In this document: positions 1-3,903 of the stretch, piece after piece
How the letters are laid out: every line of letters begins with the position of its first letter
Numbering within the stretch: position 1 is the first letter of the stretch
Source: a virus
Lineage: Duplodnaviria; Heunggongvirae; Uroviricota; Caudoviricetes
Reading direction: 5' to 3' (one strand)
IMG/VR virus record: IMGVR_UViG_2695420380_000014
Span: 1-4,073 of that record
DNA length: 4,073 bases
Translations under genes and position numbers: made by a program
The notes under the pieces: model-generated
Told to the model about the DNA's origin: nothing
Databases searched by the model: none
The model's input: only the letters and a program-made list of their open reading frames with translations

Positions 1-40
1 ACTGCGAGTGATGAATAAATGTCCCAGGTTCTTCACTCAG

Positions 41-70
41 GCCTGCACAGTGTGCAGGCTTTCTTTTTTT
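41..70 (+). terminator. Rho-independent terminator candidate for a plus-strand gene ending at or before position 18
   Basis: Near-perfect palindrome gcctgcaca-g-tgtgcaggc (41-59) followed on the plus strand by the T-rich run tttcttttttt (60-70). An open frame ends at TAA 16-18 (last codons T-A-S-D-E), about 22 nt upstream. On the minus strand the hairpin is not followed by a U-tract. Confidence 0.55.
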
Positions 71-195
71 CAGATTTCACCTACAACAGTGGCTTCATAA
101 CTGGTAATCATGTTTTTCTCCTTAATTAAGGTTGAGCGAACCCCTGCCATTGCTGGCATATAAGAATGAAACCGGATATTTATTACGGAACTGTT

Positions 196-387
196 TTAAA
201 GACCTGCCGGGATTTCGTTATTATCATGGTGAATAACTTTATCGACCGGATAACAGTCACCGGGAATTTTCTGTTTCGCTGCGGCAGTCATACATTCTTT
301 CATTGAGCTGTATACGCCAGTAACCATGTCAACCGGTTCACCGGAAACAAGAAAAACCGTCAGAACGAGTGCAAATACTGTATTCAT
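196..387 (-). CDS. Small hypothetical protein (63 aa) with hydrophobic N-terminal segment (signal peptide or membrane anchor) and two Cys
   Basis: ATG at 385-387 preceded by AAGGA with 8-nt spacing. The start overlaps the stop of the upstream ORF in an ATGA arrangement. Translation MNTVFALVLTVFLVSGEPVD... has an uncharged hydrophobic N-terminus, then a polar domain with Cys in KECM and GDCY. Stop TAA at 196-198. The frame is also open back to ATG 441, but that start has a poorly spaced SD. Confidence 0.5.
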   Translation of the reverse strand: MNTVFALVLTVFLVSGEPVDMVTGVYSSMKECMTAAAKQKIPGDCYPVDKVIHHDNNEIPAGL

Positions 388-572
388 TGTGCACATCCTT
401 TTGGCATCAGACGTAAACGAGCCAGCATTGAAACAATGCATATTTTATTTAATGACTCCCGTTCGTGTTTTCTCTTGTTAATGGCATCTTCAGTAAATAC
501 CGTGTTACTGATAGTGACACCAATTTCAAAACAACCTTCAGACGTATTAACGTTTGGTAATAACGTCTCCAT
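384..572 (-). CDS. Small hypothetical protein (62 aa), hydrophilic and basic, first gene of a two-gene coupled pair
   Basis: ATG 570-572 preceded by GAGGA about 8 nt upstream. It lies 10 nt downstream of the stop of the Rha 3' fragment. Stop TGA 384-386 overlaps the next ATG. No recognisable domain by eye. Confidence 0.45.
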   Translation of the reverse strand: METLLPNVNTSEGCFEIGVTISNTVFTEDAINKRKHERESLNKICIVSMLARLRLMPKGCAQ

Positions 573-582
573 TATTGCGTCC

Positions 583-678
583 TCAACAATGAATTTTGAG
601 TAATTGTTCCACAGTCATATTTTTAATTGCGCCCCGGTTAACAAGAGTCCATCCCTGTTCTTCCAGATAAAACCGGAA
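583..678 (-). pseudogene. Orphaned 3' end (31 codons) of a Rha-family phage regulatory gene, cut off from its 5' part by the IS1/IS3 block
   Basis: Minus-strand translation FRFYLEEQGWTLVNRGAIKNMTVEQLLKIHC* is in frame with, and nearly identical to, the C-terminal region of the Rha-like CDS at 2333-2917. The frame is broken at the IS1 left end (679/680). Confidence 0.7.
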
Positions 679-679
679 A
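599..679. repeat. 81-bp direct repeat, copy 1 (abuts IS1 left end)
   Basis: Read base by base against 2382-2462: identical except position 660 (c) versus 2443 (t). The next base (680 and 2463) is g in both copies, so the repeat could be counted as 82 bp. Confidence 0.9.
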
Positions 680-702
680 GGTGATGCTGCCAACTTACTG
701 AT
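680..702. repeat. IS1 left terminal inverted repeat (IRL)
   Basis: GGTGATGCTGCCAACTTACTGAT at the left boundary of the element; imperfect inverted match to 1425-1447. Confidence 0.9.
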
Positions 703-734
703 TTAGTGTATGATGGTGTTTTTGAGGTGCTCCA

Positions 735-1010
735 GTGGCTTCTGTTTCTATCAGCTGTCCCTCCTGTTCAGCTACTGACGGGGTGGTGCGTAACGGCAAA
801 AGCACTGCCGGACATCAGCGCTATCTCTGCTCTCACTGCCGTAAAACATGGCAACTGCAGTTCACTTACACCGCTTCTCAACCCGGTACGCACCAGAAAA
901 TCATTGATATGGCCATGAATGGCGTTGGATGCCGGGCAACTGCACGCATTATGGGCGTTGGCCTCAACACGATTTTACGTCACTTAAAAAACTCAGGCCG
1001 CAGTCGGTAA
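735..1010 (+). CDS. insA: IS1 InsA (transposition repressor / N-terminal part of InsAB' transposase), 91 aa
   Basis: Translation [43 protein letters not shown]...LKNSGRSR matches IS1 InsA as I recall it, including the zinc-finger-like CxxC...CxxC and the HTH region. Confidence 0.95.
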
Positions 1011-1447: not shown

Positions 1448-2336
1448 ATTTTGCACAGGAGTCGCTGAAAAATACGCGTTAATCGAACAATGGCGACAAC
1501 AATTTCCCATTGAAGCGATGTGTCAGGTATTTGGTGTATCCAGGAGCGGTTATTACAACTGGGTACAGCATGAACCCTCAGACAGAAAACAAAGTGATGA
1601 GCGGCTAAAACTGGAGATTAAGGTGGCACATATCCGCACTCGCGAAACATATGGAACCCGGCGGCTCCAGACGGAGCTGGCAGAGAATGGCATCATCGTT
1701 GGTCGTGACCGACTGGCACGTCTTCGTAAGGAGCTAAGGCTACGCTGTAAGCAGAAACGCAAGTTCAGAGCGACTACGAACTCGAACCACAATCTGCCAG
1801 TTGCGCCAAATCTGCTGAACCAGACGTTCGCTCCTACAGCACCAAATCAGGTCTGGGTGGCGGACCTGACGTATGTTGCCACACAGGAGGGATGGTTGTA
1901 CCTCGCTGGCATCAAAGATGTTTATACGTGCGAAATTGTCGGCTACGCCATGGGAGAGCGCATGACAAAAGAGCTGACAGGTAAAGCCCTGTTTATGGCG
2001 CTCAGGAGCCAGCGCCCACCTGCCGGGCTAATCCACCACTCTGATCGAGGTTCACAGTACTGCGCATACGATTACCGGGTCATACAGGAGCAGTCTGGTC
2101 TGAAAACATCAATGTCGCGTAAAGGTAACTGTTACGACAACGCTCCGATGGAAAGCTTCTGGGGAACGCTGAAAAATGAGAGCCTGAGCCACTATCGTTT
2201 TAATAACCGGGATGAAGCCATCTCAGTAATACGGGAATACATTGAGATTTTCTACAATCGTCAGCGTCGTCACTCTCGTCTGGGGAATATCTCCCCGGCA
2301 GCCTTCAGGGAAAAATATCATCAGATGGCTGCTTAA
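1448..2336 (+). pseudogene. IS3-family transposase OrfB (DDE integrase catalytic domain), 5'-truncated, lacking orfA and the frameshift window
   Basis: Translation from 1448 (...AEKYALIEQWRQQFPIEAMCQVFGVSRSGYYNW...) parallels the N-terminus of IS3 InsF as recalled ([32 protein letters not shown]). DDE motifs are visible: VWVADLTY, HSDRGSQY, ESFWGTLKNE. The only in-window start for this frame is a TTG at 1434, which lies inside the IS1 IRR. Stop TAA at 2334-2336. Confidence 0.85.
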
Positions 2337-2379
2337 AAAAAGAACAAATGGTAGTGTCCGCTATTGCCAGTACACCTCA
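1448..2379 (+). mobile_element. IS3-family insertion sequence remnant (right part only: orfB plus right end); left end and orfA replaced by IS1
   Basis: Begins immediately after the IS1 IRR. Encodes an rve-type DDE transposase frame. After the orfB stop there are about 40 bp ending in ...CCTCA (2375-2379), consistent with the CA-3' terminus typical of IS3-family ends. The exact right boundary (2377-2381) is uncertain. No IS3-type left end or orfA is present in the window. Confidence 0.8.
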
Positions 2380-2917
2380 AAAGTAATTGTTCCACAGTCA
2401 TATTTTTAATTGCGCCCCGGTTAACAAGAGTCCATCCCTGTTTTTCCAGATAAAACCGGAAAGTCTCCAGGGTACAGACCAGTGCGCCATCAGGAACGGT
2501 TTCGGTGAATTCGACATTGCCGAATTTGTCGAAGTGAACAACCAGAGTGCGACCATCACCCGGAATCATCTTGTCAGCAGGTGGGGTGTTATTCTGGCGC
2601 AGTTCGGCCTCCATGCGGTCGAACTCAGCAATGTAGGCTTCTTTGAATGCAGCGGCTTTTTTGCCAGTGAAGCCCATAACCAGGAAAACGAAGCCGTTTT
2701 TGGTGATTTGGTACATTGGGAGTTTGCGCCCGATTGAGTCGGTGTATTCGCTCGCTTCAAAATTGAGGGCAGTAAATTTATCTGAGCATTCAATATTTGC
2801 GATGGCACGTAACACATTGTCGTGTCGTTTGTGGAAGAACTCTGCAACCGCAACAGACGTAGTGACAGCGCGACCGTTTTCTACGGTTACACAAGGGTGA
2901 GAAAGGGTAGTAGCCAT
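2333..2917 (-). CDS. Rha-family phage regulatory protein (Phage_pRha-like N-terminal domain), with its native C-terminal 4 residues replaced by a 15-residue tail read from the IS3-family end
   Basis: ATG 2915-2917 preceded by GGAGG with about 8-nt spacing. The N-terminal region ...CVTVENGRAVTTSVAVAEFFHKRHDNVLRAIANI... carries the FxKRHDNVLR motif I associate with Rha-family regulators. The frame runs into the IS end (...MTVEQLL|LRCTGNSGHYHLFFF*). The frame is also open upstream to ATG 3211 (see findings). Confidence 0.75.
   Translation of the reverse strand: MATTLSHPCVTVENGRAVTTSVAVAEFFHKRHDNVLRAIANIECSDKFTALNFEASEYTDSIGRKLPMYQITKNGFVFLVMGFTGKKAAAFKEAYIAEFDRMEAELRQNNTPPADKMIPGDGRTLVVHFDKFGNVEFTETVPDGALVCTLETFRFYLEKQGWTLVNRGAIKNMTVEQLLLRCTGNSGHYHLFFF
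2382..2462. repeat. 81-bp direct repeat, copy 2 (abuts IS3-family right end; part of the Rha-like CDS)
   Basis: Identical to 599-679 except one base (2443 t versus 660 c). Confidence 0.9.
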
Positions 2918-3081
2918 GATGGCAGCCTCCGCGATGAATTTGATTAACTCACCACCGGAGGTAGCAATCTCATGGGTGGTGAGACGTACAGGGTTGCTAC
3001 AACCGGTCATCACGGAACCCGGCCAGTCTTGCGACTGCCCCGCACGCCCCACCATAATTTGAATGTGGCTGTGCATTACGC

Positions 3082-3106
3082 ATAAAAAAACCGCCTGAGC
3101 GCGGTT
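3082..3106 (-). terminator. Intrinsic terminator-like hairpin on the minus strand, upstream of the Rha start
   Basis: Minus-strand sequence aaccgc-gctcag-gcggtt (6-bp stem, 6-nt loop) followed by seven T (plus-strand A-run 3084-3090). It lies inside the stop-free region between ATG 3211 and ATG 2917. Confidence 0.5.
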
Positions 3107-3275
3107 ATGCGCCGTGAATGACTTCGGGGTAGCAATCCCGGCACCCGTTTTATGAGGTGCAGGTGCACTATAATTCCACCCGTTCTGGTTTTCAATAGCT
3201 ACATTCAACATTTTCTCTTTCCTTTCATCACCGAAGTGAACTTTGTTGATGCGGTGCCTGGTGCCTCCAGGTGAC

Positions 3276-3296
3276 GTTAACCAGTTAACAATTAAC
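3276..3296. promoter_or_regulatory. Cluster of three (G)TTAAC motifs; candidate operator or protein-binding site in the divergent intergenic region
   Basis: GTTAAC-ca-GTTAAC-aa-TTAAC, with repeats starting at 3276, 3284 and 3292. Each GTTAAC is self-palindromic. It lies between the minus-strand Rha region and the plus-strand small gene. Confidence 0.3.
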
Positions 3297-3612
3297 GCCG
3301 GAATAAGGGATTTTCCTTACTGTTTTAACTGTTCCGCGTGCGCTGAGCCGCATTCACCGCATCACAAAATTCACTTTAAAAAGGGCGGACATCAGCCAGC
3401 AATTAAACCGATGCCGCCAACTGGTACTTCACACAGCAATGTCGTTATTTACAACCGGAGGCGCACTCCCACCATTTAAATTTAACAGACAAGACCGACT
3501 CTTTATGGATACCGGAAATGCGCCTTCGTGTTGTGCCCGGTTTTATTTCACCACCTCCGGGCTTTGGTGGTATCTTTACTGAAGTTCTCACACAACCAGT
3601 AAGGAAATGAAT

Positions 3613-3903
3613 ATGCCAACGTATCTCGCCAGAGTAGAACTATATAATGCTGAGCCAGAGGATTACGAAGGGCTTCATAAATATATGCTCTCACTAGGAT
3701 TCAGGAGAACGATCCCCCATGGAGATGGTTCGTATAATCAACTCCCGGACGGAACTTATGTTTCCGAAAAGGGCGGTGATATTTATCAAATTCGCAGCCA
3801 GATATCTGACTATGCAGACCGACTATCCAGGTATCGCGCGTCTGTTTTTGTTTGCGAATTCAGTCAATGCGCATGGTATTTATACCCCGCCAAGACCCGG
3901 TGA
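3613..3903 (+). CDS. Small hypothetical protein (96 aa), tentatively GhoS/DUF2622-like
   Basis: AAGGA at 3601-3605, 7 nt before ATG 3613 (the ATG at 3607 is too close to the SD). Translation MPTYLARVELYNAEPEDYEGLHKYMLSLGFRRTIPHGDGSYNQLPDGTYV... shows by eye a residue pattern (TY...Y....L...M....F...I....G...QL) resembling E. coli GhoS as I recall it. This is a memory-based resemblance only. Stop TGA 3901-3903. Confidence 0.5.
   Translation: MPTYLARVELYNAEPEDYEGLHKYMLSLGFRRTIPHGDGSYNQLPDGTYVSEKGGDIYQIRSQISDYADRLSRYRASVFVCEFSQCAWYLYPAKTR

Follow-up and report, generated by a model that had tools for sequence, protein, structure and literature searches.

The two small overlapping genes at positions 196-572 of the 4,073-nt stretch of viral DNA analysed here (hereafter the window) are very probably a Shigella sonnei allele of dicB-ydfD, the gene pair at the distal end of the early-left ('dicBF') operon in Qin-like lambdoid prophages. 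An initial annotation made from the sequence alone had placed a gene pair at exactly these coordinates, and two ORFs are indeed found there, both on the minus strand. It had recognised neither product, an assessment that must be revised: by Pfam and NCBIfam matches and by identity to the Escherichia coli K-12 proteins, the products are those of the named and experimentally studied genes dicB and ydfD. The pair thus belongs to two known families in a known arrangement and is itself already known. Its genes and signals are:

384..572, minus strand: dicB, 62 aa, assigned by PF05358, NF049927 and alignment with K-12; product METLLPNVNTSEGCFEIGV...
196..387, minus strand: ydfD-family gene (DUF1482), 63 aa, assigned by PF07358, phrog_1092 and alignment with K-12; product MNTVFALVLTVFLVSGEPVD...
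384..387, minus strand: ATGA stop/start overlap of dicB and ydfD, read directly from the sequence
580..584, minus strand: GAGGA Shine-Dalgarno sequence of dicB, read directly; it overlaps the Rha stop codon (583-585)
396..400, minus strand: AAGGA Shine-Dalgarno sequence of ydfD, read directly; it lies within the dicB coding sequence

The sensitive homology search that had been proposed for both products assigned each of them to a family. The 62-aa protein matches Pfam PF05358 (E = 2.5e-38, 130 bits for a cutoff of 27) and NCBIfam NF049927 (CellDivInhibDicB, 132.7 bits for a cutoff of 100), in both cases over residues 1-62 of 62. It is identical to DicB of E. coli K-12 MG1655 at 58/62 positions (93.5%), the differences from the Qin (Kim) protein being K2E, P24T, Q36H and L40S, and its exact sequence, found on 4 contigs, is deposited as Shigella sonnei DicB (P0241). 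It also has the other hallmarks of the DicB family, namely a length of about 62 aa and a gene that immediately precedes ydfD in a lambdoid prophage's early-left operon. The K-12 Qin gene shares with it the leader, the Shine-Dalgarno sequence, the position upstream of ydfD, the 4-nt overlap and the length of 62 aa.

The 63-aa protein matches Pfam PF07358 (DUF1482, E = 7.7e-23, 80.6 bits for a gathering cutoff of 25) and, over residues 1-63 of 63, phrog_1092; an NCBIfam search of this protein matched no model. Orthology to the K-12 MG1655 lysis protein YdfD is indicated by 47/63 identical residues (74.6%) and by the shared position and overlap. Both proteins have 63 aa, a hydrophobic N-terminus, two cysteines, a QKIPG.CYPVDKVI core and the same place in the operon, and the 16/63 positions at which they differ cluster at residues 21-28 and 37-38. 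The family has a paralogue family, YebW. The exact sequence of the window YdfD occurs on 382 contigs, and NCBI/RefSeq labels this allele 'DUF1482 family protein' only. At homologous E. coli loci, RefSeq lists 'cell division inhibition protein DicB' beside either 'DUF1482 family protein' or 'lysis protein YdfD'.

The translation signals described in the initial annotation are all present. GAGGA lies 7 nt from the dicB ATG and AAGGA 8 nt from the ydfD ATG, and the dicB stop TGA (386..384) shares bases with the ydfD ATG (387..385), producing the claimed ATGA overlap. Likewise, the 63-aa product has the hydrophobic, uncharged N-terminus and the two cysteines attributed to it: residues 1-16 carry no charge, the Kyte-Doolittle maximum over 11 residues is 3.17 (residues 4-14), and the cysteines occupy positions 32 and 45. 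The window holds 51 ORFs of at least 30 aa, so that ORFs in the size range of both genes are common by chance, and the case for real genes must therefore rest on comparative evidence.

For this comparison, 90 loci were fetched (4 annotated records, 6 species-representative genomes and 80 viral contigs). Lack of conservation of either ORF had been named as an outcome that would speak against the pair; both are retained, a full dicB lying immediately upstream of ydfD with a CAATGA junction at 88/90 loci. The other two loci are truncated, in one case by IS1, and the junction is present in every fetched locus that carries the pair. In a subgroup of 20/90 loci, dicB is two codons shorter, with a TGA as its stop. 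The dicB leader of 24 nt is conserved at 89/90 loci, with either Rha or DicF as the upstream neighbour. Median pairwise dN/dS is 0.35 for dicB (32 unique sequences) and 0.24 for ydfD (37 unique sequences), and third codon positions are the most variable in both alignments; as judged from these sequence comparisons, both genes are evolving under purifying selection. The family matches, the frames and junction kept across the loci and the dN/dS values together bear out the proposal that these are genuine, translationally coupled prophage genes.

At least 80% of window positions 150-600 is carried by 4,022 of 5,426 complete E. coli genomes, often in several copies, and the pair is found in deposited genomes of temperate phages such as Tritos and mEp460. 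The six loci from the scan of species-representative genomes come from Escherichia or Shigella except one (L009), on a contig binned as Veillonella parvula, whose dicB-ydfD has an E. coli-like sequence and is most likely a mis-binned E. coli prophage. With a few DicB database entries from Citrobacter and Salmonella added, the family looks confined to Escherichia/Shigella and close relatives.

The same loci bear on the start codon of ydfD. RefSeq Shigella records give a protein of 66 aa that begins at an ATG 9 nt upstream of the 63-aa start (window 394-396, minus strand). This upstream ATG, the 66/67-aa start, is present at 60/90 loci and missing from the other 30/90. Since the AAGGA is essentially invariant over the 90 loci (a single CAGGA) and the ATG of the 63-aa frame is invariant as well, the comparison supports the coupled 63-aa start over the 66- or 67-aa starts of many RefSeq records. 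Because so many loci lack the upstream ATG, the start is probably placed too far upstream in many of the 66-, 67-, 81- or 85-aa proteins in the databases.

The functions of both genes have been studied in K-12. There, the operon ydfA-ydfB-ydfC-dicF-dicB-ydfD has one promoter, dicBp, under repression by the CI-like protein DicA; the study that detected a ydfABC-dicF-dicB-ydfD transcript of 1,608 nt found no promoter inside the operon (PMC10448788). K-12 DicB binds MinC, and the complex is targeted via ZipA to the septum and depolymerises the Z-ring, upon which division stops and cells filament; the interaction with MinC also blocks DNA entry of ManYZ-dependent, lambda-type phages (PMC6832061). 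DicB is itself toxic (PMC5069750). According to the account of Masuda 2016 given in PMC8835842, expression of K-12 YdfD lyses nearly all cells and co-expression of DicB or SulA prevents this lysis, which suggests that YdfD lysis needs ongoing division. One laboratory has reported that YdfD binds and inhibits IspG, an enzyme of the MEP isoprenoid pathway, and that extra IspG or its product relieves the lysis (PMC8835842); the toxicity of ydfD was confirmed independently (PMC9782134). By analogy with these orthologues, the window alleles would inhibit division, exclude phages and lyse cells. The categories that the initial annotation had guessed at, superinfection exclusion, toxin-immunity and lysis, come close to what is reported for the K-12 proteins, DicB excluding ManYZ-dependent phages, YdfD lysing cells and DicB rescuing them. 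A role as an accessory of a lysis cassette (holin, antiholin or spanin) was also considered and rejected on grounds of location: the immunity region and exo/int flank the pair, which is part of the early-left operon and not of the late lysis cassette.

Given the ATGA overlap and the AAGGA within dicB, translation of ydfD would follow that of dicB. Such coupling would tie YdfD to DicB synthesis, so that no lysis protein would be made without the division block that blunts it. Kil of lambda and Rac and Icd of P1 are, like DicB, small early- or immunity-region proteins of temperate phages that block FtsZ-ring function; unlike them, DicB acts via MinC and ZipA.

In K-12 Qin, dicB is preceded by a long untranslated region with DicF, whereas in the window it is preceded by a Rha-family gene and, unlike its K-12 counterpart, has IS elements between itself and the operon promoter. 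The flanking features of the pair are:

70..111, minus strand: remnant (13 aa) of the gene usually found after ydfD, left by a 234-bp in-frame deletion relative to loci L011 and L003
583..679, minus strand: 3' remnant (97 bp) of a Rha-family gene, cut off by IS1; it aligns with the terminal part of the uninterrupted Rha gene of locus L012
680..1447, plus strand: IS1, 768 bp; NCBIfam transpos_IS1 on both frames, terminal inverted repeats read directly
1448..2380, plus strand: truncated IS3-family element (IS600-like), transposase part only; NCBIfam transpos_IS3, 354 bits
2381..2917, minus strand: main part of the Rha-family antirepressor gene; PF09669 (E = 9.2e-32) and TIGR02681 (115 bits)
2972-3059, minus strand: C4 antisense RNA; 79 bits, above the Rfam threshold
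3084-3160, minus strand: isrK; 64.8 bits, above the Rfam threshold

The pair had been described as lying downstream of a Rha gene. This is true of the 3' remnant at 583-679, which adjoins dicB; the main part of Rha, at 2381-2917, lies beyond the IS block. Locus L012, an intact IMG/VR relative that is 99.5% identical, has a single continuous Rha gene, with a DicA-like repressor and ydf-like genes upstream of the pair. More generally, the E. coli Rha-dicB-ydfD loci (e.g. CFSAN029787) and L012 share with the window the order isrK, C4 RNA, Rha, dicB, ydfD and a nucleotide identity of 98-99.5%, but their Rha gene is continuous, whereas the window has an IS insertion, an 82-bp duplication and a deletion in the gene that follows ydfD. 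The duplicated segment is the 3' end of Rha, repeated directly at 599-680 and 2382-2463 with 1 mismatch on either side of the IS block, a pattern consistent with recombination between IS1 copies located in separate prophage copies, not with a simple insertion. The element next to IS1 is 99% identical to IS copies in L012 and its terminal sequence ends at 2380; by this end sequence, the element at 1448..2380 is IS600-like.

It had also been proposed to check whether the pair is conserved together next to Rha genes. The two genes do stay together, as described above, but adjacency to Rha is found at only 5/90 loci, the window included, where a Rha-family gene ends 10 nt before dicB and its stop codon falls within the conserved dicB leader. 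At 50/90 loci, the upstream neighbour is DicF, at a distance of about 175 nt from dicB.

Further upstream, the C4 RNA and isrK directly precede Rha, forming an antirepressor-control module inside a dicBF-type operon that resembles those of P1 immI and Gifsy-1 isrK-anrP. A DicF-like RNA at 3383-3433 (minus strand) scores 28.6 bits, below the Rfam threshold of 48, and keeps a terminator hairpin with a U-tail (MFE −23.8 kcal/mol, z −3.4); its targets may differ from those of K-12 DicF, from which its 5' part departs. Between this RNA and isrK lies a weak match to the STnc100 sRNA (3242-3371, minus strand, 33.7 bits for a threshold of 47). For an ORF of 98 aa at 3607-3903 (plus strand), the match to phrog_8894 is strong and that to the YmfI phage family weak (52.8 bits, where the cutoff is 140).

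On the other side of the pair, the full-length relative of the 13-aa remnant has 91 aa and belongs to the NCBIfam PRK09790 / phrog_4778 family. The deletion junction falls at 81/82, within the remnant ORF, which has lost 78 codons and still has a strong AAGGAG site. The plus strand has a strong intrinsic-terminator-like hairpin with a T-run at 39-70, oriented convergently to the dicB-ydfD operon; read on the minus strand, it has no U-tail.

These rearrangements bear on whether this copy is expressed. IS1 exerts polarity on downstream genes whichever way it is oriented, and here it sits between the upstream part of the operon and dicB. Since 1.7 kb of IS1 and IS600-like DNA, antisense to the operon, separates the pair from the operon remainder and would cut it off from its promoter, the pair is probably transcriptionally orphaned and silent in this contig. 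A simple consensus scan of window positions 1-900 found no minus-strand sigma-70-like site, which is weak negative evidence. Expression from an outward promoter at the IS1 end, or by read-through, is possible.

The pair could then be a decaying, functionless relic that lost its promoter to the IS elements and is drifting towards pseudogenes, a reading that is compatible with the dicB-ydfD identity and differs from it only on present-day function. There is damage on both sides, where IS1 and the truncated IS600-like element split Rha immediately upstream and the gene after ydfD is cut to 13 codons, and at a related E. coli O121 locus dicB itself is truncated by IS1; yet in the window both frames, both Shine-Dalgarno sequences and the overlap are intact. 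A similar opposition holds for the proteins. The window DicB, whose exact sequence was found on 4 contigs only, differs by two substitutions of its own, one of them at an almost invariant site, whereas its YdfD is identical to the sequence on 382 contigs, and two substitutions are too few to indicate relaxed selection (2.5 non-synonymous and 1.5 synonymous changes between the dicB genes of the window and L011). L40S, which this DicB carries together with P24T, affects a residue whose conservation across the family is at least 90%; since S40 occurs naturally in a divergent subgroup, this substitution is not evidence enough for a loss of DicB function. On balance, we consider it somewhat unlikely that the pair is such a relic.

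Distinctly less likely is a two-part alternative, in which YdfD is a compact soluble alpha/beta mini-domain and, separately, the S. sonnei copy is re-wired, not dead. In its second part, the pair, orphaned from dicBp, encoding DicB with L40S and read from an outward promoter borne by an IS element, may have an altered balance between division arrest and lysis. In its first part, which rests on modelling, the hydrophobic N-terminus of YdfD may be a core beta-strand, neither in the membrane nor exported. Structure prediction, proposed for both proteins at the outset, gave with AlphaFold a two-helix DicB model of low confidence (pLDDT 64.9) and a best YdfD model with a mean pLDDT of 82.6 and a pTM of 0.63, three of the five YdfD models being near 55. 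In this best model, which is moderately reliable, a strand at residues 4-12 pairs with residues 18-26, followed by a helix at 29-39 and short strands. A structural neighbour search with the YdfD model returned no significant neighbours, and no solved structures related by sequence to DicB or YdfD were found.

The N-terminus of YdfD, which has a single hydrophobic stretch of 11-14 residues and no lipobox cysteine after it, could be a membrane anchor, a signal peptide or a buried strand. Were residues 1-16 a Sec signal peptide with cleavage following V-S-G, the product would be a periplasmic peptide of 47 aa, with a disulfide between C32 and C45. The uncharged run has small residues at −3 and −1 before E17, as such cleavage would have it, and of the two cysteines C32 is invariant and C45 nearly so; however, no positive charge precedes the hydrophobic core, and the best AlphaFold model, again only moderately reliable, uses residues 4-12 as a strand of a compact domain. 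Moreover, the C-terminal domain alone, when made in the cytoplasm, is reportedly still toxic, and the reported target IspG is cytoplasmic (PMC8835842). We therefore regard export as very unlikely, and the published data speak rather for action in the cytoplasm or at the membrane.

It is even harder to see the pair as a true toxin-antidote module in which DicB binds YdfD directly and translational coupling sets their stoichiometry. Both the conservation of the coupled arrangement at 88/90 loci and the abolition of YdfD lysis by co-expressed DicB (Masuda 2016, as cited in PMC8835842) would suit such a module. However, the unrelated division inhibitor SulA rescues equally well in the account given in PMC8835842, which points to protection by division arrest rather than by binding of YdfD, and this indirect protection argues against a classical toxin-antitoxin pair. 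The toxicity of DicB itself (PMC5069750) and the Pfam search of both proteins, which revealed no autoregulatory DNA-binding domain, also speak against it, and we hold this reading to be highly improbable.

Finally, the possibility that the two frames are one frameshifted gene, which the initial annotation had named as a refutation of its proposal and which two proteins carrying both domains in one chain might recall (P0126, 108 aa, and P0143, 92 aa), has next to no chance of being right, as these fused forms are rare singletons in single-member clusters, whereas 88/90 loci and K-12, where both products have been characterised, keep a 62-aa and a 63-aa frame apart, each with its own Shine-Dalgarno sequence.

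The correct label for the pair is hence dicB-ydfD rather than a cargo pair without a name. As a discovery it carries little weight: work on dicB dates back to the 1980s and on ydfD to 2016, genomes in which the pair is annotated number in the thousands, and most E. coli and Shigella genomes carry it. For workers on these genes, the useful points are the 63-aa start of ydfD and the two operon contexts in which the pair occurs, one with DicF upstream and the other with an isrK/C4/Rha antirepressor module upstream.
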